Virus record (IMG/VR): IMGVR_UViG_3300001390_000008
Coordinates: 1-64,000 of that record
Source of the DNA: a virus
DNA length: 64,000 nt
Strand: one strand, 5' to 3'
Position numbers and translations under genes: made by a program. The notes beneath the pieces were generated by a model. It searched no databases. It worked only from the letters and a program-made list of their open reading frames with translations, and was not told the origin of the DNA. This document shows, one piece after another, positions 2,200 through 49,586 of this stretch; within the stretch, counting starts at the first letter, position 1; every line of letters begins with the position of its first letter.

Positions 2200-3513
2200 C
2201 TACACTTTAATTTCTGTTACTTTAATAAAAGAATTCGCTTTTCCTCCATATACGGGGGCACCTGCCGCGTCTGCATTTATATATGCTGTTCCACTACCTA
2301 CACCCATCCTCAGCTTAAACGTCGTTGCTATTGTGGAGTTTGAAGTATATTCAAAATCAACAAACGCACTTGAATACATAATAGAACCATAGGACATAGA
2401 AACGGCATCAGCTCCTGCATTACTATCCCTAAATAGTGCCATAGCTACTGTATCTTGCTCCCAACTGCCCCACATAACAGCCTGAACGTGCAATATACTA
2501 TTAGCATATTTGGGGGTATACAAGATTGTCGTTATTTCCTGACCTTCTGTATTTTGCGGGATTGTATTATCCCATGGAGTTAGCGCAGTAATAGTTGTTA
2601 CTGTAGTATAGTCTGCTCTTAGGTGGCCTACAACACCGGTTTGGGTAGCACTTATAGAATCCCCTACAACTTCATTTCTAACACCATAAATAACAATAGC
2701 AGTATTTGCTATAAAATTTTCTGCATCCAATGTAGGCCTAATAGTTATCCTATTTATAGAACTAACATTCTGCCAAAACATATTAGTTATATTAACCGAT
2801 AGATTAGTTGGGGATTCTCTACCAGCAAAGGATGTTGAATCGCATAATTTATATCTATTTTCTGTATACCCTTTTATATTAATATATAAATTCCCATAGT
2901 AGGAAGCTAGTGAGGCGTTAGTGCTAGCTTGACCAATAATAGCATCATTAATTGGGTAAAGTCCTACACTGCCCGCCCCATATATAGTTGCTGATTTATA
3001 GTTAGTTGAAATAATATCATTATTGATATACATCCGTATATTATCGTACCCGGTAGCAGCTTCGGTAGTTCTTGCATCTAGTAGCTCTATGTATAAATCA
3101 CCATAACCTTGACTTATATTTTGTATATCAAAAATTCCATCCACTGCTAGAATTTCTTCATATAGTTTAGTTTTTACCTGCTTTATACTTGTCGAGCCGG
3201 CTAAACTAGATTGTAGATCACCCGTAATATCATAAACACCCGTACTAATACAGGTAGTAACTATAGTAGCATTAGTCCCATAAGAAACTAAATTCTTATC
3301 TTGTGGTAAGTTTACTGTTGCTCCTGCTGTAGTAAATGTCTGTAACCCATCAATACTCTGAATAACAAATATATTACCAGCCGTTACCCCAGTAGAGGGT
3401 ATTGTAATTGCGAAAGCACCTGTGCATCTATAGGTTACAGAATCATCCCCCGCCCCTATATCCGCATCTGCTATTGTGAAAATACCTGATTTAGGTACGA
3501 TAGTAGTAGACAT
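2200..3513 (-). CDS. putative tail fibre / receptor-binding protein
   Basis: 437 aa modular Thr/Ser/Ile-rich protein; C-terminal PWDNTIPQNTEG...TFKLRMG...SFIKVTEI resembles phage fibre tip modules. Confidence 0.6.
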   Translation of the reverse strand: MSTTIVPKSGIFTIADADIGAGDDSVTYRCTGAFAITIPSTGVTAGNIFVIQSIDGLQTFTTAGATVNLPQDKNLVSYGTNATIVTTCISTGVYDITGDLQSSLAGSTSIKQVKTKLYEEILAVDGIFDIQNISQGYGDLYIELLDARTTEAATGYDNIRMYINNDIISTNYKSATIYGAGSVGLYPINDAIIGQASTNASLASYYGNLYINIKGYTENRYKLCDSTSFAGRESPTNLSVNITNMFWQNVSSINRITIRPTLDAENFIANTAIVIYGVRNEVVGDSISATQTGVVGHLRADYTTVTTITALTPWDNTIPQNTEGQEITTILYTPKYANSILHVQAVMWGSWEQDTVAMALFRDSNAGADAVSMSYGSIMYSSAFVDFEYTSNSTIATTFKLRMGVGSGTAYINADAAGAPVYGGKANSFIKVTEIKV

Positions 3514-3521
3514 ATCGGTTC

Positions 3522-4310
3522 CTACGGGTTAGTAGTTAAAGAAAGACCTAGTGAGAATGTATTTTGAGCACTGGTCAGCCTATTTTCTGCCGGGGTTACC
3601 TTCTTTATCCAAAAAGCATAACTCTCGCCGGCAAGCATTGTTCCTAATAGTAGCCCGGTACTAGAACTACTGGGGGATGCGAAGGTAAGGGCTGATAGTA
3701 CATTAGTGGTATCTTCCGTATCTGCCAGGGGGCCGAGAGCAACCCCATTAAGCCCTGCTGGATCTAGACTAACAGATACAGTATCCGCCACATCTGGCTG
3801 GGCATTAACCCATATTGTTACTTTATATGCAGTAGCCGTAGCGTGATTATTTTGCAAGTAAAAACATCTATATTCTGTATTACCTGCAAATGACTGTACC
3901 TCAGTAATATCATCAAATATATTTTGGGGCACATTTGATATAGTCACTGAATCTTGTGCAGAGGCGGCAGGAAAGTTTGCGTATATCACATCTATTATAA
4001 GATACCCTGCCGCATTTCCTACAGTGTATGTGCCGTCCCCCGTAATATTTTTCCCAGTTCCGTTAGGCGACCCCGGAGGATACCACCACAAAGCGTCTGT
4101 GGACTTTGTATATTGTAAAGTACCTATTCCTTCCGTATTGCCGTAAGCATCTACTACAGTTACCCCAGTAATATTAGTGACCCCGGCAGCACTCTGGCTT
4201 CGTACTTCATTAGGAGTTCCCGCAGAGATAGCCCCACCTATACTTGCTAAAGGGGTTATAACGGCGGGGCCAGAAAATAGCATCAATATATCTGTAATAC
4301 TTATAGCCAT
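3522..4310 (-). CDS. putative minor tail / baseplate protein
   Basis: NIFDDIT...GNTEYRCFYLQN and YAFWIKK motifs; position in tail module. Confidence 0.6.
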   Translation of the reverse strand: MAISITDILMLFSGPAVITPLASIGGAISAGTPNEVRSQSAAGVTNITGVTVVDAYGNTEGIGTLQYTKSTDALWWYPPGSPNGTGKNITGDGTYTVGNAAGYLIIDVIYANFPAASAQDSVTISNVPQNIFDDITEVQSFAGNTEYRCFYLQNNHATATAYKVTIWVNAQPDVADTVSVSLDPAGLNGVALGPLADTEDTTNVLSALTFASPSSSSTGLLLGTMLAGESYAFWIKKVTPAENRLTSAQNTFSLGLSLTTNP

Positions 4311-7214: not shown

Positions 7215-8531
7215 CTACGGATTATCTGGTGCGGCATAGGAATCAGACCCTTCTACGGAGGGGGCGGTTAATCTCAATGTACCTACCTGCTTTCTATTAA
7301 GCAGAGCAGGAGGCTTAGTATATGTTGCAATTATCGTAGCATTCTTAAATTTAACTATCCTGCCATTAATTCCTATCTCAGTATCGAAGGCATAGGGGTA
7401 TACACGGTAAGTTGTGGTATATGTAACCTTTATTAATCCTGCTATTTTTATCACAAAGCCTGCTATATCTGTAGCAACTATCTCACCTGGTTGTACAATT
7501 CTGTTTTGTGGCCTTCCCTTGTACTCACTAGGGTTAAGCCAATTAACCTCTTTTACTGTGTACCCTTCCTGCCTAAATATTACAGTAACCCTTCTGTTCC
7601 ATTGATCGACTATATCAGAATCCTCTTTTATACCCATCCTGCCCTGTGGAGGGTACTTTACATTCCTGCCATTCACCCCCTTAAAATTTATAGATTCATG
7701 TATAACCCTATAATTACCTTTTTGTGGGGTTAGCAGAGAGCCGTCTGTGACCTCTATCTTAGCCTCTACATCAGGATATACCCTTATGAGTGCAGAAGCT
7801 TCTAATACTGCGGTAGATGGCATACCTGCCTCAGTATACGTAGTTATAGCAGCAGGCCCATCTGCATCCACCTCTATCACTAGTCTCCCTACCCCACTAT
7901 TTCTACTTATATTAGCTAATTCGTATTCACACTTGGGGGCTTGTAAGGATATCGTAGCAAAGTCCCCGGAGGATGCCTCATACACCACTATTATCGCATC
8001 CTCATAAGGTATATATTTCTTAACATTTGCCCCGAAGGGGTTATATATAGACTGAGGAGATGGGGGGCCTGAATAGTCTGTTTCATAGGGGCAGCCCCAC
8101 CCCTCATAGAGAAATTTATACAATGTATATCTAGCTTTGTATGTGACCTTTATAACACCAAACCCTATTTTACTTGAGTCTATTGTATTAGTAGAGCCGT
8201 TAAACGATAAAAATGTTGTAGTTATATTTCCAGAAACATCATGGAATTTACCTAATAGCGATATAGCCACACTATAGGCTTTAGGGTAGGTTAGACGTAT
8301 CTGCTTGCTATTGGTAAAGGATAATATTTCTTCCACCTCCTTTACAGTACTTCCTAGCTTAACTAGTTGCCCTGAGCTCTCCCATACTTTCCCGGTACGT
8401 TCAGGGTAAACCCTTAGGTATTGCGTTCTTAGGGAGTACTTAGCCCGGTCATCAGCCTCTATCAGCAGAGATTGCTCTGCTGCACTACTGCTAAAATCTA
8501 CGGTAATAGTACTGGTTAGTCTCGTGCTCAT
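7215..8531 (-). CDS. putative tail protein with two internally repeated domains
   Basis: LLIEAD..YLRVYP..GQL..EILSF..TYP repeated as LVIEVD..LIRVYP..GSL..ESINF..KYP. Confidence 0.55.
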   Translation of the reverse strand: MSTRLTSTITVDFSSSAAEQSLLIEADDRAKYSLRTQYLRVYPERTGKVWESSGQLVKLGSTVKEVEEILSFTNSKQIRLTYPKAYSVAISLLGKFHDVSGNITTTFLSFNGSTNTIDSSKIGFGVIKVTYKARYTLYKFLYEGWGCPYETDYSGPPSPQSIYNPFGANVKKYIPYEDAIIVVYEASSGDFATISLQAPKCEYELANISRNSGVGRLVIEVDADGPAAITTYTEAGMPSTAVLEASALIRVYPDVEAKIEVTDGSLLTPQKGNYRVIHESINFKGVNGRNVKYPPQGRMGIKEDSDIVDQWNRRVTVIFRQEGYTVKEVNWLNPSEYKGRPQNRIVQPGEIVATDIAGFVIKIAGLIKVTYTTTYRVYPYAFDTEIGINGRIVKFKNATIIATYTKPPALLNRKQVGTLRLTAPSVEGSDSYAAPDNP

Positions 8532-8806
8532 ACTACTTTATTACAGGATATTATATTTGTCTGCCGTAGTTGTACATCACTTGGGCGTTTTCTACTCCCA
8601 CCTCGTAATGCGGGTAGATGTCTACGGTTACCCTTTAGTTGTATTGACGGGTCATCATTTAGTTTTATTCTTTCCCTGAAGTACTCTATAGGGTTACCCA
8701 GAGTTACCCCAGGGTGGCCCCAATCTGCCTCCTCTATACCCATTTCAATCAGGTGCTGTTTTTCCTGCCGGGTGAAAGGTGCATCTTTAATTCTGGTAGT
8801 AGCCAT
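8528..8806 (-). CDS. hypothetical protein
   Basis: 92 aa, GAGGA RBS, ATGA overlap with the next gene. Confidence 0.6.
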   Translation of the reverse strand: MATTRIKDAPFTRQEKQHLIEMGIEEADWGHPGVTLGNPIEYFRERIKLNDDPSIQLKGNRRHLPALRGGSRKRPSDVQLRQTNIISCNKVV

Positions 8807-8819
8807 TACGGATTCCTCA

Positions 8820-8841
8820 TGTCAACCCTAAGCAGATTCTC
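8820..8841. repeat. direct repeat copy, downstream flank of HNH-1
   Basis: TGTCAACCCTAAGCAGATTCTC, 20/22 identical to 9550-9571. Confidence 0.85.
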
Positions 8842-9496
8842 TACGCATTGAAGGTGTAGGAGTTGTTACCGCCTTTTTATGAGACCAGTTAAGAGCTAAC
8901 ACCCTTTTATTAATAGTGGAGCTAGGTATTCCTGTACGGCGAGACCACCCCGCTAAAGTATCCGTAACACCATCCACTGTAAGACGTACATTATTGCTTT
9001 TATTACTAGCTTGCTCTATAGAAGAAGCCCATTTACAATTACTAGGGGTGTAATCACCATTAAGGTTTTTACGTTCTAAGCTATATCCCTCTGGGCGTGG
9101 CCCCATATCTTTTAAGAATTGTGTTATATCTTCCCACCCATCACATACCTTTATCCCCCTACCACCATACCTACCCCATCTATTATTTTTAGGGTTGGTG
9201 CATCTATCATGCATGTTATGCCATATATGGTACAAAGGATGGTAACTTTTTCCGTGAGTTTTCTTCCCTACTTTTTGTAGGCACCCACATGATTTTGTAT
9301 GGCCACTTTTAAGATTATTGCCTTGTATAGTAACCCTTACCCCGCAATCACATAAACAATCCCATACAGGGGGGGAAGAGCCCTTTATGTATCTTTTTAC
9401 CAAAAGCGCATTAAATTTTTTATCGCATAAATCTATTATCCACTTCCATTGAGTACCATATCTACCCCTACCAAGATATCCTATTTTACCTTCCAT
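8828..9496 (-). CDS. free-standing HNH-family homing endonuclease
   Basis: WDCLCDCG...TKSCGC; WHNMHDRC; YGGRGIKVC; DMGPRPEGYSLERKNLNGDYTPSNCKW; start reassigned to ATG 9496 behind GGAGAG. Confidence 0.85.
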   Translation of the reverse strand: MEGKIGYLGRGRYGTQWKWIIDLCDKKFNALLVKRYIKGSSPPVWDCLCDCGVRVTIQGNNLKSGHTKSCGCLQKVGKKTHGKSYHPLYHIWHNMHDRCTNPKNNRWGRYGGRGIKVCDGWEDITQFLKDMGPRPEGYSLERKNLNGDYTPSNCKWASSIEQASNKSNNVRLTVDGVTDTLAGWSRRTGIPSSTINKRVLALNWSHKKAVTTPTPSMRRESA

Positions 9497-9526
9497 AATT
9501 GCTCTCCATACATTAATGAAGAACAT

Positions 9527-9555
9527 AATATAGCTAAGAAGTATCACCGTGTCAA
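9527..9555 (-). promoter_or_regulatory. sigma70-like promoter of HNH-1
   Basis: TTGACA-N17-TATATT. Confidence 0.7.
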
Positions 9556-9571
9556 TCCTAAGCGGATTCTC
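9550..9571. repeat. direct repeat copy, upstream flank of HNH-1
   Basis: TGTCAATCCTAAGCGGATTCTC. Confidence 0.85.
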
Positions 9572-10553
9572 CGTCAACCCCAACTATAACCTTATTATTC
9601 GACAAAGAAGCTGTGCCTGCTGGGATAGTCCTCTTTTGCCATATAGGTATAGCTGCTGGTGAGGTTGTAAATACCAGGGTATCCCCATTTGCAAAAACAC
9701 CGGCAAAGGCGGTATTAGTAATGGTGAAATAGGGCTTACTATAATCATTATTAGTTGGGGTAGCACCGGAACTTGTAGTGCCTGAACCCACAGAACCAAG
9801 AATATCCCCTACTATGCTGAATGAAGTAGCATCAGAAAAGGTTAGTGTCCACTGCTGCTCAACAGTGCCTATACTATCCATAGCAAGATAGACCGAATCA
9901 AAGGTTCCTGAACCCGCCACTGTAGCTACTACAGTACCATTTAGTGCCTCAACTGTCCCCGCCTGTATTACTGAGGATACTCTGGTATTTGCTGCTATAT
10001 ATCCATTAACCAGTGCGGGGGTAAAGCTTAGTGTAGCTACATCGCCTACATAGGTTACCACAGCATTGATGGTTATATATTCTTCCTTACCTACCACATC
10101 ATTGACATCTGTCATATCTGAGATGCGTACTAACATATTATTTTTGAAATAGGCTAAATTAAAATCTTCTGTAAGTACAGTAATACTCGTAACACCGGCT
10201 AATACATCTGCATCAAGAGTACCGCACCCATATTGCTGCTCAGCCCCAGATATAGCGGCCTCTGTATCCGTAGAGGTGCCCGGAAATATAGTTACAGCAT
10301 CCGCACCGGGCGTATTTGTTTCTATAAATACTCGGGTCTGTAGTAACTGTAGGTCTGCATCATTAGCTATGTGGCAATGTGATTTCCTATATTTTGTAGA
10401 TCCTGTACTTCTCTCTGACTGTGAAACATCAGGCCATAGGTTATTCTTTGCATTATCTATGATGGCATTTTTTGTCATTCTGCCGCCATTATTAGTGGTG
10501 TCGTCATTAGTTTCTGACTGGCGCCATATCATTTCTGAAGCTACGATACTCAT
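9558..10553 (-). CDS. putative tail/baseplate structural protein
   Basis: NNLWPDVS..R..G..KYRK and AIPIWQKR motifs, related to 3522..4310. Confidence 0.65.
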   Translation of the reverse strand: MSIVASEMIWRQSETNDDTTNNGGRMTKNAIIDNAKNNLWPDVSQSERSTGSTKYRKSHCHIANDADLQLLQTRVFIETNTPGADAVTIFPGTSTDTEAAISGAEQQYGCGTLDADVLAGVTSITVLTEDFNLAYFKNNMLVRISDMTDVNDVVGKEEYITINAVVTYVGDVATLSFTPALVNGYIAANTRVSSVIQAGTVEALNGTVVATVAGSGTFDSVYLAMDSIGTVEQQWTLTFSDATSFSIVGDILGSVGSGTTSSGATPTNNDYSKPYFTITNTAFAGVFANGDTLVFTTSPAAIPIWQKRTIPAGTASLSNNKVIVGVDGESA

Positions 10554-10563
10554 AATCTATCCC

Positions 10564-10947
10564 TCAAACTGTCATTAATTTAATAGTGCAAGTGTAATAA
10601 TCGCCCGGATCTGCATTATTCCTCTTTATTAATGCATCTGCAATAAAAGCAGGGGATTCATGGTGACGAAACTTTACCAAAAATGTTTGATACCCGGTAT
10701 CCAGAGAATACGCTGCTCCAGCCACATCAGCAAGTGCACGTACCTGATCCACCTGTGTCTTGGTCAACCACCCCTGATCTTCTTTAGCCACTAATGTAAT
10801 AGAGCGCCCTAAACTCAACTGCTGATCACGGACTACTAGATTACCCGCCAATGTTCGTTTAACAGAGGAGGCCACAGAACTATAGGTATCTTCGTCCTCC
10901 CATATCATGTGGGTGCTAAGGGTAACGCCTCCTAAAGTTATTGCCAC
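10564..10947 (-). CDS. putative distal tail protein
   Basis: 127 aa directly after the tape measure; WEDE..RTLAG..ITL motifs. Confidence 0.6.
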   Translation of the reverse strand: MAITLGGVTLSTHMIWEDEDTYSSVASSVKRTLAGNLVVRDQQLSLGRSITLVAKEDQGWLTKTQVDQVRALADVAGAAYSLDTGYQTFLVKFRHHESPAFIADALIKRNNADPGDYYTCTIKLMTV

Positions 10948-13900
10948 TATGCTATACCTTTTTCAAGTCCGTTCATTACATCTACAAAAGTCTCAACGGC
11001 ATCAGCCGCCCCGTATAAGGTGGATTCCTTGCCATTAAGAGTAATGTTTAAAGTAGTTACATTACCTACCTTACCAGACCCGCCACCGACAAGCCCCCCT
11101 CCAGCAAACGCGGGTAGCCCGCCTTTCATTTTTGGCCTACGCCCTGTTTTTGCAAGTGCTTGCAATCCTGAAAAAAAGCTGCCACCAAAGAACCTTGTGG
11201 TTATAGCATCCATAACAAACTCACCGTTAGATAACCATGCAGGTATAGAATCACTTGTTGAGGAGCCTGGCCCACTTACCTGCCCCCCAGAAGAGTACCC
11301 TACAATATTGTCGCCTGTATTAGTTACCTTACCATCAGCCCCTACTACACTGGTTATTATACCCCTAAGCTTTATATCCATCACGCCTAAAGCATCTATT
11401 CCTGTTTGTATCTGTACAGGATCAGGCTCAAGCTCCACCGGTAATTTCAGATTTGCAGCCTCTATGGCCCCCGCAACAGATTTAGCATATTCATAAGCAT
11501 TATTACTGTCAAAATCTATTTTAAGCTCTTCCTTTAACTTAGCATTAAACACTTTACTATAATTATTTGCATTAGCATTAATACTATCAAAGTCCAGTTT
11601 AAACTCTTCTTTGAATTTAGCGTTAAACACATCACTGTAGTCTTTTGCATTAGCCCCACCCGCCGCTATAAGTGCATCATGCCATTTAGTAAACCGATCT
11701 AATGCAGAATCACCAAAGGCCTGCCCATACTGAGTGCCCGCCTCTCTACCCTGTGTATAGAAATCTTTTCCTTGTGGGCCTTTTACCTTTAACTCAACGG
11801 GAAACTCAAAATCGTTAAATGTTCTTAATGCTGCATCTGCCCTTCTCTTCGCATCTAATGGATCTATTGTAAGACCAATCGTTATTTTACTGTCAGGGCT
11901 TTCTTCAAGATTACGTACCCCCTCTAAAACGGCAGTATCGTCTGGGGTTAAGTCTACGATAACTTTGGGGGGGTCACGATTAATTAGCTCTTGTATATAC
12001 TTGAAAGTATTTGCAATTTCTATATCTATTGGATCGGCAGCAAATGCTAGCTGTAATTTCTTTACAAGATCTTTACCCTCATTATCAAGTAATTCAGGCA
12101 GTATTTTTACAGGAATAGTAGTATCTGCTGATGCGGGGGAGAGAACAAAATCAAGCAACCCGGATAGTAGGCCTTTATCTTTATTGTCTATACTGGCTAC
12201 TATAGTAGCGTTTATCTTACGATTATCCTCAAGATTCTTTAGTGTGGTTAAATCATCCCCAACTAAAGAGATATCCACAGTTACTGGTACCTTTTCTGCA
12301 CCAACAGAGGTGTTAAGGCCACTATTAATGGCTTTTTTTATATCATTATCTATTTCATCCCCGTTAATATCTACATTTAACTCATAAGTGTCTGTAGCCC
12401 TTTTAAACCCATCTTCTACCCCATCCTTTATGCCGTCAGATACCGTTTTAGAGGTGGTACTTTTAAAAGCCTCTATCTTTTCTTTAGAGGGTATCCATGG
12501 ATTATTTGTTATATTATCCGGGGTACCTATAGCCCTGTGGGCATCTCGTGTTTTTTTACCCCCCTTTAACCCGGCATCACGATCAGCCTCTGCCTTTGTT
12601 AGCCTCTTTACGGCTTCTCTGTAAGCATCTATATCAACTACATCTTCTTTTGTAATAAACTTCGGGAAAGCCTTCTCTAATTGCTCACCTCTATAATTTA
12701 TATTAGACAAATAGTTAGACAATTCTTTTAATTTTTCAAGTACATTCTCCAATTTAGTTTCTAGGTAGGTGAGTACCGTAGTGAAATCCTCTGCCTGTTT
12801 TATTGCCGCAGTCTTTATAGTTTCTGCTGTACTACTAAGACCTGCCTCTAACTCTTTATCAAAAGCTAAGTAGTCCTTCTTGAGTTGCTCAAATTCCTCT
12901 TTAGGTATAAGGAATTCTGACTCTCCTGCATAATTAATCCTACGCAAGTCCTTTAGTTCATTTAATAGCCCCTGTCTACTCTTAAATTCTTCCTTAGAAT
13001 CCTTGCGTAAGGCTCGGGCACGATCTACCTCTCCTTTTTGTGTCGCAGCATCGACGTCCTTAAGTAATTGTAGCGACCTCTTCCTATTTGCTACTAGTTT
13101 TTCTTCTAGTTCATTACGACGTAAGGTAGATATCTCGTTAAGATTGTCCCCTTCAAGTAATTTTAACTGTTCTTTTAATTCAGCCTCTACTGCCTTTCTT
13201 GACCCTTCCCCACGTATTTTTATTTTTTCTTTTGCCTGCTTACGCAATAGATCTTTTTCTTCCTCTAAAGAATCGCTTAGCTCCTTACGGGCTTTTTCCC
13301 CACTTATAGTTAATTCACGATCTTTTAGCCCCTGATCGAAGTCTACAAGAAAATCTTGCAAATTATCCCTAAGGGCAACAAGCTCATTACCTACATTATT
13401 ATATGCAGATATAGCTGATTTTTTGTAAGCTAATGTAACACTTGTCAATTCTTTTTGTTTTGCTACAGCTTGTGCCAGGGCGACTTTTTCTATCTCTAGT
13501 GCAGAGGCTGATTTTTTATATGTTTCTATTATATTTACCCCAGATATATTTAACCCTTTCTGCGCCTCCATTGCTGCTTTTAAAGCTATACTAAACTGTT
13601 TTATTTTAGCAGCATCCATACTCCCTATAAGCTTATCAATTAGCTTCTGCTGTGTGGGGTTTATATTAGATACACGTTCAGGTTTAAATTGGTCACCACG
13701 ATTAAGGTATTTATTAAGATTATCGCTAGCTGCTCGGTAATTATCGTTTAGCTTACTCCATCTATCATTTAATACTCCAAGCGTCTCCGTCTCATTCTCT
13801 AAATCCCTTTTATTATTAGGGTCTACTAAACCCCCATCTACCGGTATCCCAGCTAAATTTCTATATTGATCTATTTCTTTAATTATTTTTTCTTGTGCTT

Positions 13901-37347: not shown

Positions 37348-37377
37348 ATTATATATCTTTGTGTCTTATGCTGTCAA
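37348..37377 (-). promoter_or_regulatory. sigma70 promoter
   Basis: TTGACA-N18-TATAAT. Confidence 0.7.
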
Positions 37378-37399
37378 CTATGGTATTCTATATAGACGA
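37372..37399. repeat. direct repeat copy, downstream flank of HNH-2
   Basis: TGTCAACTATGGTATTCTATATAGACGA, 25/28 identical to 37855-37882. Confidence 0.85.
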
Positions 37400-37807
37400 T
37401 TCATATTTTTTTCTACGTGTACACCATTTTTTTCTACTATCGTTATACCATCTGAATATAGTACGTGATGATACCTTACAAGCTTCTGCTGCATCATCTG
37501 TTGTATTATATTCTATCCCATGTATTACCCATATAAATGACGTTGATCTATTGTTAGCTTGTTCTACACTTGTAGACCATTTACAATTATTTAAATTATA
37601 GTTACCATTATTATTTTTCCTATCTAAAGTTTTGCCCTCTGGTTTTTCCCCCATGTCTTCTAAAAAATTTTCAAATTTTTCCCATCTTTTACATACTCGT
37701 ATTCCTCTAGCCCCATAATATTTATTATTAATATTTTTAGTTCTAGTTATCATACTGCTCCATATATTGTATGTACTTGTTCCTGTCATGCGATGTGTTG
37801 TACCCAT
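37388..37807 (-). CDS. free-standing HNH-family endonuclease
   Basis: WSSMITR; YGARGIRVCKRWEKFENFLEDMGEKPEGKTLDRKNNNGNYNLNNCKW; start reassigned to ATG 37807 behind G-rich RBS. Confidence 0.85.
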   Translation of the reverse strand: MGTTHRMTGTSTYNIWSSMITRTKNINNKYYGARGIRVCKRWEKFENFLEDMGEKPEGKTLDRKNNNGNYNLNNCKWSTSVEQANNRSTSFIWVIHGIEYNTTDDAAEACKVSSRTIFRWYNDSRKKWCTRRKKYESSI

Positions 37808-37831: not shown

Positions 37832-37860
37832 ACTATAATATACCAGTTTATTTATGTCAA
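37832..37860 (-). promoter_or_regulatory. sigma70 promoter of HNH-2
   Basis: TTGACA-N17-TATAGT. Confidence 0.75.
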
Positions 37861-37882
37861 CTATGGTATTATATGTAGATGA
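37855..37882. repeat. direct repeat copy, upstream flank of HNH-2
   Basis: TGTCAACTATGGTATTATATGTAGATGA. Confidence 0.85.
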
Positions 37883-39106: not shown

Positions 39107-39321
39107 ATATTTTGAAATCGCTTGCAAAATAGAATATTAGAATATTAGAATTTAATTACATTATTATATTATTATATTAGAACTTAATTACATTATTACA
39201 TTAGAGTTTAATTACATTATAATATTAGAATTTAATTACATTATTATATTAGAATGTTAGAATAGTATTCAGTATACCCTGCGAGCAGTATTCGGTATGC
39301 CCTGCGAACATAACCGGGTGT
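39107..39321. repeat. modular AT-rich repeat locus 1
   Basis: ATATTTTGAAATCGCTTGCAAAAT, tandem TTAGAATTTAATTACATT units, two CCCTGCG-N9-SGGTRT boxes. Confidence 0.8.
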
Positions 39322-41788: not shown

Positions 41789-42052
41789 TTATACACAGTA
41801 TATATTTATATGTTTACTTTCCATTGAATACCCGTGCCCGATTGACCCGCCGCCTTTAGATAATCTATGCCCTGTTTTGTCTGATATGATTTTACAGGCC
41901 TCGGCATAGTTCCCCTTAGTTGATGCTGCGTTTATTTTATCGTTATGCCCTATATATAAGGGTTTATTATGACCTAGTAACTGGTATACCATCACTGTTC
42001 GATTAAACCCTCTAGCACCCCTCTCTGATCCCATATAGATAAATGTTTTCAT
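41789..42052 (-). CDS. hypothetical protein
   Basis: 87 aa, AGGGG RBS. Confidence 0.6.
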   Translation of the reverse strand: MKTFIYMGSERGARGFNRTVMVYQLLGHNKPLYIGHNDKINAASTKGNYAEACKIISDKTGHRLSKGGGSIGHGYSMESKHINIYCV

Positions 42053-42101
42053 GATATGCCCCTATCAGTATTTGCGCCTAGATAACTGCACTATCTAGTT
42101 G

Positions 42102-42383
42102 TTAATAACTCAATCCTAGGTTATCAAGGCGCGATTCATATCTGTGTAAGATTAAACCAGCCTCTATTAATACGCTGGTATCATAATCAATCAATACTTG
42201 ATGCCAGTAGTCACCTGTACCAATACTGGCGCTCGGTTTATAGCCCCATGATGCAGGGGTATATTCACCGCGATCATTTAATTGATCGCAGATTGAAAAA
42301 TGCAGGTTCATACTTGATCCCCATGGATCTGCAATATCCCGCACAAGCTTATATTCTGCCAGCAGTTCTTTATAGGTATACAT
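42102..42383 (-). CDS. hypothetical phage protein
   Basis: DPWGSSM..F.IC..L motif; GAGG RBS. Confidence 0.6.
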   Translation of the reverse strand: MYTYKELLAEYKLVRDIADPWGSSMNLHFSICDQLNDRGEYTPASWGYKPSASIGTGDYWHQVLIDYDTSVLIEAGLILHRYESRLDNLGLSY

Positions 42384-42423
42384 AATAATTACCTCAGTTT
42401 GGGGGTATCAGGCCGCTGGTGTA

Positions 42424-42639
42424 TCATCTTTGTTTCCCTTTATTTAAATCGTAGTGCTTAGCGTTTCTTTGTATATCCGACCAGCCGTCGAGCATGTTCA
42501 GAAGACCGTGTAGAGCATCAAAGTTAGATTTTCCAACGCGCAATATATCAAGCCCATGAACATGCCTGGCTAGAATTAAGCGTTGTTTTTCTAACAGTTC
42601 AAAGTCTACACCTTGAATTACTAAAGTCTTTTTAGTCAT
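42424..42639 (-). CDS. hypothetical protein
   Basis: VDFELLEKQR..LHGLLNMLD. Confidence 0.6.
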   Translation of the reverse strand: MTKKTLVIQGVDFELLEKQRLILARHVHGLDILRVGKSNFDALHGLLNMLDGWSDIQRNAKHYDLNKGKQR

Positions 42640-42890
42640 ATTACCTTCCCCATATTAATAGCTTCTTGCAGTGCCTTCGCTATAGTTATTTCCAGAACAT
42701 CTCTATCTAAAACTATTTGCCCCATGAACTCATGAGACGTAACATAGCGTATACTGGTTATTTCACCACTATAGTTAGTTGTGGTTAAAATGTCGGTTAT
42801 CTGTTAGACATAACGGAGGTCTTTGATCTGCCTATTGCGATTAGTTAATCGTTGAAACTTTTGCCCTATTTTATATTTTGGTGTTTTCAT
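42636..42890 (-). pseudogene. small phage gene interrupted by in-frame TAA
   Basis: MKTPKYKIGQKF...RYV*QITDILTTTN...RYVTSHEFMGQ; TAA at 42806-42804; the frame ends in an ATGA overlap with the next gene. Confidence 0.65.
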
Positions 42891-42902
42891 GATATGCCCC
42901 TA

Positions 42903-43118
42903 TCAGTTATGCCCCTGCTTATACCATGACGTTTCAGCCATCCGCATACGGTACTTTTTATACCTATTACAAATTCTCCTCCGATCTTTTTTAACTGGTT
43001 TTAAGCCGTACAAATTAACTCCCTCATATTTTAGTTGCCCGTATAACTCACGTATTGGCCACAATTTTTCATCGTGTAACATACAGACATGTCCGGCAGC
43101 ATCGCGGCGCGGATTCAT
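42903..43118 (-). CDS. hypothetical protein
   Basis: 71 aa ORF. Confidence 0.45.
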   Translation of the reverse strand: MNPRRDAAGHVCMLHDEKLWPIRELYGQLKYEGVNLYGLKPVKKDRRRICNRYKKYRMRMAETSWYKQGHN

Positions 43119-48112: not shown

Positions 48113-48310
48113 CTAGCCATATTCAGATATTATTTCTATTGCCCTTTTTCTTAGTAGCTTAAGACTGCTACAGATTATTTCCTCCTCAATATTTCCATTA
48201 GCCTCATACTGCAATTTGTATAGATTTACATCTATTTTAGAAATATCCACTGAATAATAAGAGAAGCCCTCTATATCTAATGTAGCTTTAAATATCGTTA
48301 TTAATGCCAT
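48113..48310 (-). CDS. hypothetical protein
   Basis: 65 aa ORF. Confidence 0.45.
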   Translation of the reverse strand: MALITIFKATLDIEGFSYYSVDISKIDVNLYKLQYEANGNIEEEIICSSLKLLRKRAIEIISEYG

Positions 48311-48513
48311 TTGTTTTACTGCCCCGCCTTCTGCATATCTAGATATATTTAGTCAATGTGGTGGATTACTTTATCTGCTATCTCACTGGCAATTTCAGAT
48401 ATATATTCTTTTTCTTCACAGTCGCTTCTCTCAATTGCCTTCATCTTCACTTCCTCGTGTAGTTTTAGCGAACATGTTGCATTACAGTAATGCTCGGTAT
48501 GTATGCGTGGCTG

Positions 48514-49230
48514 TTAGGCATCAGAAATTCTGTCCTTTGCCGTATTAAAATAATCATCATCCAATTCAATACCAATAAAATCTCTACCTGTTTTTTTGCA
48601 GGCCGCGCCAGTTGTCCCAGTCCCCATAAATGGGTCTAAAACAACTGAATCAACTTTGCTAAATAATCTAATTACTTTTTCTGCTAATTCCTGCGGAAAT
48701 ACCGCGCCATGGTCTTTGCTTACTTTCTTTCCGCGCTTTATACTCCAAACATTTGAAAGCACCCCTCTATCAAACTGTGCAGTTTTAAATGACCTGCTTT
48801 CAGGCGCACTGTTTTGAAGCACAATCAAAACCTCAAATTGGCTATTCATTACGCCTTTCCCTATTGCAGGCTGCGCGTTTAACTTATCCCATATAATAAA
48901 TTCTTTTACTTTGCCGCTAAATTCACCAAGCAGTTTAAAAAGAGCAGGTTTGTTACCTGTGAGGAATTGCACATTGTAAAAAACCAAATCAGAAACCCTT
49001 AAACACTCATTTAAAACTTTCTTGTTAAACTCAAAATAATCGTCAATAGGCAAATTATCGTCAAAGCTTTTATATTTTGTACTTATCTCTTTAACTATCT
49101 GCCTAGAGCAATATTTACCATTTCTAATCCTGAGATTCATATTGTACGGCGGGCTGGTTAATACAATATCAACACTTCCGCTTGGTATTTCTTTCATTTT
49201 TTCTAAACAATTACCTCTTAATAATTTCAT
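48514..49230 (-). CDS. site-specific DNA methyltransferase (N4-C/N6-A, beta class)
   Basis: TSPPY catalytic motif; HGAVFP; VLDPFMGTGTT SAM-binding motif; FIGIEL. Confidence 0.92.
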   Translation of the reverse strand: MKLLRGNCLEKMKEIPSGSVDIVLTSPPYNMNLRIRNGKYCSRQIVKEISTKYKSFDDNLPIDDYFEFNKKVLNECLRVSDLVFYNVQFLTGNKPALFKLLGEFSGKVKEFIIWDKLNAQPAIGKGVMNSQFEVLIVLQNSAPESRSFKTAQFDRGVLSNVWSIKRGKKVSKDHGAVFPQELAEKVIRLFSKVDSVVLDPFMGTGTTGAACKKTGRDFIGIELDDDYFNTAKDRISDA

Positions 49231-49235
49231 TTGTT

Positions 49236-49586
49236 TTACTGCCTCGCCTTTTTTGCTATTTCTACTAGCTCATTCCAGTCACGATGGCCTGTGTTACAAT
49301 GCTTTATAGCTAAAACTAATAGTCTACCCCGCTCAGGTTCAAGAGAGAATATGTAATTTCTAAGCCCCTGCATTTCTGCGGTCTGTGTTCCGGCCCCGCC
49401 GCAGATACACTTCTTTCCGCTTACTGGCTTTCCCTGCCCGGCACAAACACTACACATAGCCGACTCTTTAGTACACTCTATGTGTCTCAATGTAAATTCA
49501 ACCATTTCATCCGCACCTAGATTATCCCATCTATTTAACTCATCTGCCTGCTTATTCCAGGCTTCTATAATATCGTTAATTTGCAT
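49236..49586 (-). CDS. hypothetical protein with Cys motif
   Basis: WNKQADELNRWDNL; CSVC..CICG. Confidence 0.6.
   Translation of the reverse strand: MQINDIIEAWNKQADELNRWDNLGADEMVEFTLRHIECTKESAMCSVCAGQGKPVSGKKCICGGAGTQTAEMQGLRNYIFSLEPERGRLLVLAIKHCNTGHRDWNELVEIAKKARQ

Follow-up and report, generated by a model that had tools for sequence, protein, structure and literature searches.

Mitochondrial mORFs have been described in fungi, in atp6 of Allomyces macrogynus and in atp6, atp9, cox2, and nad3 of Glomus (PMC3630166). In each case, a conserved gene carries an endonuclease ORF inserted at its 3' terminus, and this terminus is duplicated before and after the ORF (PMC3630166). The ORF in Glomus atp6 has no stop codon and shares its reading frame with the native end, which has been displaced (PMC3630166). 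Free-standing homing endonuclease genes are also known from phages and include the seg and mob genes of T4 and the HNH genes of mycobacteriophages (PMC3706429, PMC10448857). The junctions described for phage HNH insertions are either precise or accompanied by a 35-bp loss (PMC3706429).

The locus described here contains HNH-1, a putative nuclease gene of a dsDNA phage. HNH-1 is best explained as a free-standing homing-endonuclease-type cassette situated behind a tail gene, the arrival of which duplicated the 22-bp boundary (estimated probability of approximately 0.58). As in the mORFs, HNH-1 lies between two copies of a host-gene terminus, and the copy that adjoins the gene completes it. The distribution among relatives is sporadic, as it is for mORFs, and HNH-1 likewise has no stop codon of its own and runs in phase into the displaced terminus. 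The differences are that the duplication spans 22 bp (4 codons, the stop codon, and 8 nt) rather than tens to hundreds of bp, that the enzyme belongs to the HNH family rather than to the LAGLIDADG or GIY-YIG families, and that the host is a dsDNA phage. In addition, the repeat also carries the −35 element of the incoming gene, and the same layout is shared by cassettes that do not encode a nuclease. The HNH-1 cassette may be regarded, by analogy, as the functional phage counterpart of a mitochondrial mORF.

HNH-1 resembles the free-standing homing endonuclease genes of phages in being a single-gene cassette with its own expression signals between conserved genes, in its presence or absence at the same site, and in its position at a boundary where the downstream gene content changes. 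Unlike those genes, the ORF ends in a duplicate of the terminus of its neighbor. No published phage ORF that ends in a duplicated copy of a neighboring terminus was found in the literature searched. A first-pass annotation of this DNA had treated the duplication as a departure from known homing. That claim of novelty fails, since the fungal mitochondrial mORFs have the same architecture (PMC3630166); what was not found in the literature is a phage example.

The DNA analyzed is the first 64 kb, hereafter called the window, of a 93.8 kb IMG/VR virus record that is rated as 98% complete. No DNA-level relative of this phage was detected in the phage collection searched. All of the genes treated here are on the minus strand. 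The order in the tail module is a 1726-aa tape-measure ORF, a 127-aa ORF, a 331-aa ORF, HNH-1, a 92-aa ORF, and a 438-aa ORF. The features of the HNH-1 locus are as follows.

9561..10553, minus strand: tail-module gene encoding 331 aa (PHROG 6128/9261/24675), the native 3' end of which is the upstream repeat copy.
9550..9571, minus strand: upstream repeat copy, consisting of the last 4 codons and stop codon of the tail gene and then 8 nt ending in TTGACA.
9527..9555, minus strand: promoter-like site TTGACA-17-TATATT, the −35 of which belongs to the repeat and the −10 to the insert.
8831..9496, minus strand: HNH-1, 222 aa, HNH family (PHROG 374), with the ATG at 9496, a GGAGAG ribosome binding site (RBS), and the stop codon at 8828-8830.
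8820..8841, minus strand: downstream repeat copy, consisting of the last 3 codons and stop codon of HNH-1 and then 8 nt ending in TTGACA.
8808..8831, minus strand: candidate third, degenerate copy of the tail-gene end, which overlaps the downstream repeat and reaches the RBS of the next gene.
8531..8806, minus strand: 92-aa gene downstream of HNH-1, with no family match and absent at this position in 80 of 80 related loci.

The two 22-mers, which read 9571..9550 and 8841..8820 on the minus strand, are identical at 20 of 22 positions. The first-pass annotation had reported this pair and had assigned the upstream copy to the 3' end of the tail gene (...GESA*) and the downstream copy to the 3' end of the HNH gene (...RESA*). 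The coordinates, the identity, and both assignments are confirmed (ORFs 9561-10553 and 8831-9496, respectively), and the frame of ...RESA* within the downstream copy is identical to that of ...GESA* in the tail gene. With 3 or fewer mismatches allowed, the repeat has exactly 2 matches in the window versus none in 100 dinucleotide shuffles. The 22-mer is found only at the same 2 places in the whole 93.8 kb record. Since the copies in the window differ at only 2 of 22 positions, these differences do not distinguish the foreign copy from the native one.

The native copy was identified from homologues of the tail gene. A total of 210 homologues were found. With the query set aside, 119 were listed, and almost every one of them has a ...GES[A/E/S]* terminus. 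The recurrence of this terminus in the listed homologues indicates that the upstream copy represents the original end of the gene and that the ...RESA* of HNH-1 is derived. The surrounding gene order was compared in 80 related loci from IMG/VR, each of which contains a tail-gene homologue at an amino-acid identity of 60% or less. The tail-gene homologue is followed by a downstream neighbor within 10-100 nt in 80 of 80 loci, and this neighbor is a recognizable homologue of the 438-aa gene in approximately 15 of them. An HNH gene between the tail gene and its neighbor was found in 0 of the 80 related IMG/VR loci, and a TTGACA directly 3' of the tail-gene stop codon was also found in 0 of 80. The HNH-1 cassette is regarded as a lineage-specific insertion because it is missing from these 80 loci. 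The 92-aa gene at 8531-8806 may itself have entered at this boundary at an earlier time.

The edges of the insert are defined by the orthologues of HNH-1 (P0121). Orthologue P0122, recorded as GMQ91711.1 from the MAG BMS9Abin11, is 76% identical to HNH-1 and is collinear with it up to ...MR, after which the two proteins terminate in ASLG* and RESA*, respectively. The point of divergence is the first base of the downstream repeat. The divergence of a 76%-identical orthologue exactly at the start of the repeat indicates that HNH-1 has no stop codon of its own. The homology of P0241, which is a member of the same 90% cluster as P0122, ends at the same point. P0241, which comes from a Logan contig of 1929 nt, was called from an upstream TTG and has an extended reading frame. 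When the first 10 residues of P0241 are placed against window positions 9497-9577 (minus strand) in the same frame, 7 of the 8 positions that span the repeat agree. The single difference could be synonymous in the reading frame of the tail gene. The match between this extension and the repeat suggests, at the level of protein sequence, that a tail-gene end and TTGACA are also located upstream of P0241.

A more distant orthologue, P0123 (57%), ends in ...GESE*, and the tail homologue P0062 likewise ends in ...GESE*. P0123 and P0062 are each recorded on a single contig of 3609 nt and are very probably neighbors. If so, the two copies of the terminus covary between phages. The two nearest orthologues of HNH-1 appear to occupy the same site behind the tail gene. 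HNH-1 would then be sporadic at one site, being absent from the 80 related loci, apparently present with P0241, and probably present with P0123 and P0062. The downstream copy in the window is still identical at 20 of 22 positions whereas that of the orthologue has decayed, which would call for either a recent event or gene conversion. Scans of IMG/VR with HNH-1 and P0123 returned nothing closer than 49%, and the metagenome family members, among the matches listed, are all at 45% identity or lower.

The expression signals of HNH-1 are divided between the repeat and the insert. The TTGACA-17-TATATT site agrees with the sigma-70 consensus at 11 of 12 positions and is the best promoter-like site within 8400-10700. 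Only five TTGACA-N16-18-TAnnnT sites, this one included, are present on the same strand of the window, and the TTGACA hexamer itself is found there just 16 times in 64 kb. The TTGACA of the downstream copy has no −10 element at 16-18 nt. The spacing of 17 nt between the upstream TTGACA and a TATATT in the inserted DNA had been noted in the first-pass annotation and is confirmed. Its further proposal, that the −35 is taken from the target and the −10 and RBS are brought by the insert, is borne out by the positions obtained in the promoter scan. The cassette contains a single ORF, with 53 nt of non-coding DNA before the ORF and none after it.

The profile matches for HNH-1 are PHROG 374, 3377, 2081, and 953, which are labelled as HNH endonuclease, with E-values from 1e-58 to 6e-14, and the best of these is PHROG 374. 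No family was found in Pfam-A (E up to 10) or NCBIfam (E up to 1). The structure predicted for HNH-1 has a pLDDT of 93. The top match to the whole model in VIA-align is the PacI HNH restriction enzyme (3m7k_A; Z of 5.9, rmsd of 2.5, 73 residues), and the same chain is the top match to the core alone (Z of 5.7, rmsd of 4.1, 78/98 residues), with both values being weak and under the trust level of 8 set by the tool itself. For the core, 14 of 48,161 chains reach a Z of 2, and four of these are HNH enzymes. Nothing significant was returned for HNH-1 by Foldseek against the PDB or by a profile search of PDB sequences, and the weak, non-significant rows from Foldseek include I-HmuI, PacI, Gme HNH, McrA, and Cas8-HNH. 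In family alignments A3 and A4, no variation is seen at R142, N153, or N165, and very little at H81. The family motif reads [D/E]-R with an invariant Arg; from the motif, rather than from a structural superposition, we take this position to be equivalent to the D-H (general-base His) of I-HmuI-type enzymes. The missing Pfam HNH match and the Arg at this position both speak against the homing-endonuclease explanation of HNH-1. Membership of HNH-1 in the HNH fold is plausible.

Additional bracketed cassettes were found in the same genome. A seeded scan at spacings of 250-2000 nt returned 3 direct pairs versus 0 inverted pairs, with approximately 0.15 pairs per shuffle. HNH-1 constitutes the fourth pair, which was missed by the seeded scan because its repeat has no exact 9-mer. 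The additional features are as follows.

37391..37807, minus strand: HNH-2, a 139-aa paralogue of HNH-1 that is 46% identical in the core.
37855..37882, minus strand: upstream repeat copy of HNH-2, 25/28 identical, ending in TTGACA and followed by 17 nt and then TATAGT.
37372..37399, minus strand: downstream repeat copy of HNH-2, containing the HNH-2 stop codon and the −35 of a TTGACA-18-TATAAT site for the next genes.
48298..49250, minus strand: methyltransferase cassette with an ORF at 48514-49230 and 33-nt repeats at 49250..49218 and 48330..48298.
42044..42907, minus strand: 838-nt cassette with a perfect 26-nt repeat that contains a stop codon, an RBS, an ATG, and 2 codons.

The repeats of HNH-1 and HNH-2 both end in TTGACA, and with only 16 such hexamers on the strand this shared boundary is unlikely to be due to chance. 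No close orthologue of HNH-2 was found for a comparison of boundaries. Each repeat of the methyltransferase cassette contains the last 4 codons and stop codon of the upstream gene, a 5-nt spacer, an ATG, and 3 codons. The presence of the ATG and 3 codons in the repeat indicates that the first codons were copied from the start of the downstream gene, and that the start has been borrowed. A simple boundary duplication explains these repeats without integron attC sites. The cassette at 42044-42907 has two small ORFs and may represent a nuclease cassette that has decayed, since its initial 28-codon ORF (42890) shows weak similarity to the N-terminus of HNH-family proteins. The repeat sequences are locus-specific and mutually unrelated. 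Repeat bracketing in this phage is not specific to nucleases.

The frequency of this layout within the HNH family was determined for 103 family loci from IMG/VR, metagenomes, and genomes, each locus being searched for a direct repeat with one copy upstream of the start and the other around the stop codon. Mismatched locus pairs served as the null and gave a mean score of 7.6 and a maximum of 13. The scores for L088, HNH-2, and HNH-1 are 20, 19, and 16, respectively, and every other locus scored 13 or lower. In a wider scan, the ranking was unchanged and L189 was added. Over both scans, the HNH-1 pair scored 16-17, and the null had a mean of 7.6-9.4 and a maximum of 13-15. Flanking repeats are missing in approximately 98 of the 103 metagenomic and genomic family loci. 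They were found in 0 of 12 family loci from isolated or annotated phage records, the hosts of which are Pantoea, Ralstonia, Streptococcus, Pseudomonas, Staphylococcus, Burkholderia, Vibrio, Klebsiella, and Gordonia. The first-pass annotation had named a lack of flanking repeats at homologous HNH loci as the observation that would speak against its reading. The outcome is mixed: most of the family does lack the repeats, and the nearest orthologues appear to have the signature, which is also present at the unrelated loci L088 and L189. The repeat-bracketed layout is recurrent but uncommon and is not a rule of the family.

At L088, the upstream gene and an HNH-type ORF share their last 13 residues through a 42-nt duplication. 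The copies have 8 differences in 42 nt, all of which are at third codon positions. The probability that a random choice of 8 of the 42 sites would fall entirely at third positions is approximately 2.5e-5 by simple arithmetic. Differences confined to wobble positions are expected for two diverged functional alleles and not for a freely drifting copy. The differences in L088 (806-847 and 1566-1607) are unevenly distributed, with all seven third positions differing in the last 19 nt and one in the first 23. This pattern could mark the edge of a conversion tract or a deliberate recoding of the target. In L189, the duplication is degenerate, spans 31 nt, and is in frame, and the C-terminal tail of the nuclease copies the C-terminal region of the upstream gene. 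L171, in which the last 4 residues are shared in an AT-rich context, is too weak to be counted as bracketed, and L187, which has a 24-nt repeat around a three-ORF block, is too different to be counted.

In four large AT-rich phages (L170-L174, approximately 2800-3540), a family member immediately follows the same conserved gene. The nucleases of these phages, which are orthologous, are collinear up to ...SFTY[K/H] and then have different ends, and the downstream genes also differ. The same pattern of a variable tail is present, and it is located at a mosaic boundary.

The claim in the first-pass annotation that the target was duplicated and the stop codon borrowed holds, on the basis of the native upstream end, the lineage-specific insert, and the divergence of the orthologue at the first base of the repeat. 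If HNH-1 arrived as a homing-endonuclease-type cassette, the upstream copy, which still ends the tail gene, would supply the consensus −35, with the −10 and RBS coming from the insert. The downstream copy would be the displaced boundary, and HNH-1 would read three codons into it and terminate at the old stop codon of the tail gene. The duplication may have been produced by imprecise or one-sided break repair, by illegitimate recombination, or by template switching between co-infecting genomes, and the left junction may have formed at TTGACA microhomology. The TTGACA ends of both HNH repeats could reflect microhomology with the −35 of the cassette itself, or selection for expression. The duplication would have been retained because, where there is no spare intergenic DNA, only an insertion that duplicates the boundary keeps the neighbors and the newcomer expressible. 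Once formed, the cassette could be carried by ordinary homing into the corresponding site of relatives.

If this explanation is correct, compact genomes can accept a gene safely by copying the bases of a boundary, with the newcomer borrowing a −35, a start, or a stop codon, and boundary-copying insertion occurs in phage and not only in organelles. The exact edge of a mobile cassette would then have an annotation signature, namely an ORF in which the final codons match the end of the gene before it. The same signature would also mark the likely target of the nuclease, at or near the repeat.

The presence of three other bracketed cassettes in this genome suggests a process that is broader than homing endonucleases. 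In the broadest form of this proposal, insertion with boundary duplication operates throughout the lineage and places single accessory genes, among them nucleases and a methyltransferase, between closely packed genes, the 22-33 bp that are copied contain a stop codon, RBS, start, or −35, and the repeats permit looping out and re-entry of cassettes that need no integrase. A length of 22-33 bp is close to the minimal homology for single-strand-annealing recombinases. We consider this form unlikely.

The HNH enzymes themselves could instead have made the duplication. HNH-1 or HNH-2 would nick the two strands at positions 22-28 bp apart, the cassette would be joined to the ends, and fill-in synthesis would duplicate the interval. 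In favor of this mechanism, the repeat is short and adjoins the insert directly at both ends, and both of the HNH loci are bracketed by repeats that end in TTGACA. A link to the cut of the HNH enzyme was also implied by the first-pass annotation, and it is undercut by the methyltransferase cassette, which is bracketed in the same way without a nuclease, and by another small cassette of the same kind. The length of the repeat varies (22, 26, 28, 33, and 42 nt), approximately 110 other loci of the family have no repeats, and the cassette encodes no joining activity. The wobble-only differences at L088 also fit two diverged alleles better than a filled-in gap. We consider this mechanism unlikely.

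A slip in register would account for the repeat without any duplication at the time of insertion. Two tandem units of approximately 22 nt, the tail-gene end and a degenerate version of it, would have existed beforehand, and out-of-register homologous recombination during homing or replication would have added a unit around a cassette that was inserted without duplication. The evidence for this proposal is the collinear third unit that adjoins the repeat. The local alignment of 8831..8808 with 9583..9562 has a score of 13, a value that is reached in approximately 4 of 10,000 random windows, and the 11-mer family (D1) of this candidate has 3 copies. The parts of the third unit that lie outside the 22-mer are individually weak, however (p of approximately 0.1 and 0.025), and the candidate is no more than suggestive. 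The third unit could be left over from an earlier cycle, or it could have served as the substrate for a slip in register. HNH-2, the methyltransferase cassette, and L088 have nothing similar, which excludes register slip as a general cause, and we regard it as improbable for HNH-1.

The repeats could also be the sites of Campbell-type crossovers through which circular single-gene cassettes are gained and lost by the action of a phage or host recombinase, in the manner of an integron without attC. Four cassettes of 0.5-0.9 kb are present in one genome, each with repeats of 22-33 nt, and a circle joined at one copy would be a complete expression unit, with the stop, the −35 or RBS, and the start provided by the repeat. 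The PeSL cassettes of T4-type phages and integron cassettes have one shared repeat family across many loci. The cassettes described here are similar to them in that small accessory genes are bracketed by a repeated regulatory sequence, with possible gain and loss. Unlike those systems, every pair of repeats in this phage is found at one locus only and derives from the gene boundary at that locus, and a cassette could re-enter only at its own site. In addition, no recombinase is tied to the repeats. Reversible exchange of this type is considered improbable.

Chance similarity, or a repeated regulatory site with no connection to the insertion, would be compatible with the consensus −35 hexamer in the repeat but is all but refuted by the absence of matches in 100 shuffles, by the 16 nt before TTGACA being the coding end of the tail gene, by the missing −10 behind the downstream copy, and by the coincidence of the orthologue boundary with the repeat.

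Other types of element were considered and rejected. The cassettes resemble transposon or IS insertions in having short direct repeats of the target at both ends of the insert. Typical IS target-site duplications are shorter than the repeats found here. A transposable element is rejected since there is no transposase, there are no terminal inverted repeats, and duplication lengths of 22, 26, 28, and 33 nt occur in one genome; with L088 included, the length is not fixed within 22-42 nt. On the explanation favored here, direct repeats on either side of a nuclease gene in a phage are not necessarily a sign of transposition. A group I intron around HNH-1 is rejected because 8500-9900 has no Rfam match at E up to 1. 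A dispersed regulatory repeat is rejected because the repeats of HNH-1 and HNH-2 are each confined to their own locus.

The tape-measure gene contains an internal 78-nt tandem duplication (11487-11642) with 77% identity between the units. In several related phages, a TTGCAA-type palindrome is located just 3' of the tail-gene stop codon (L004:4503-4540, L021, L025, and L069). This palindrome resembles family D3 of the non-coding modules of the window (39107-39128 and its copies) and may be a regulatory site common to the phage group.
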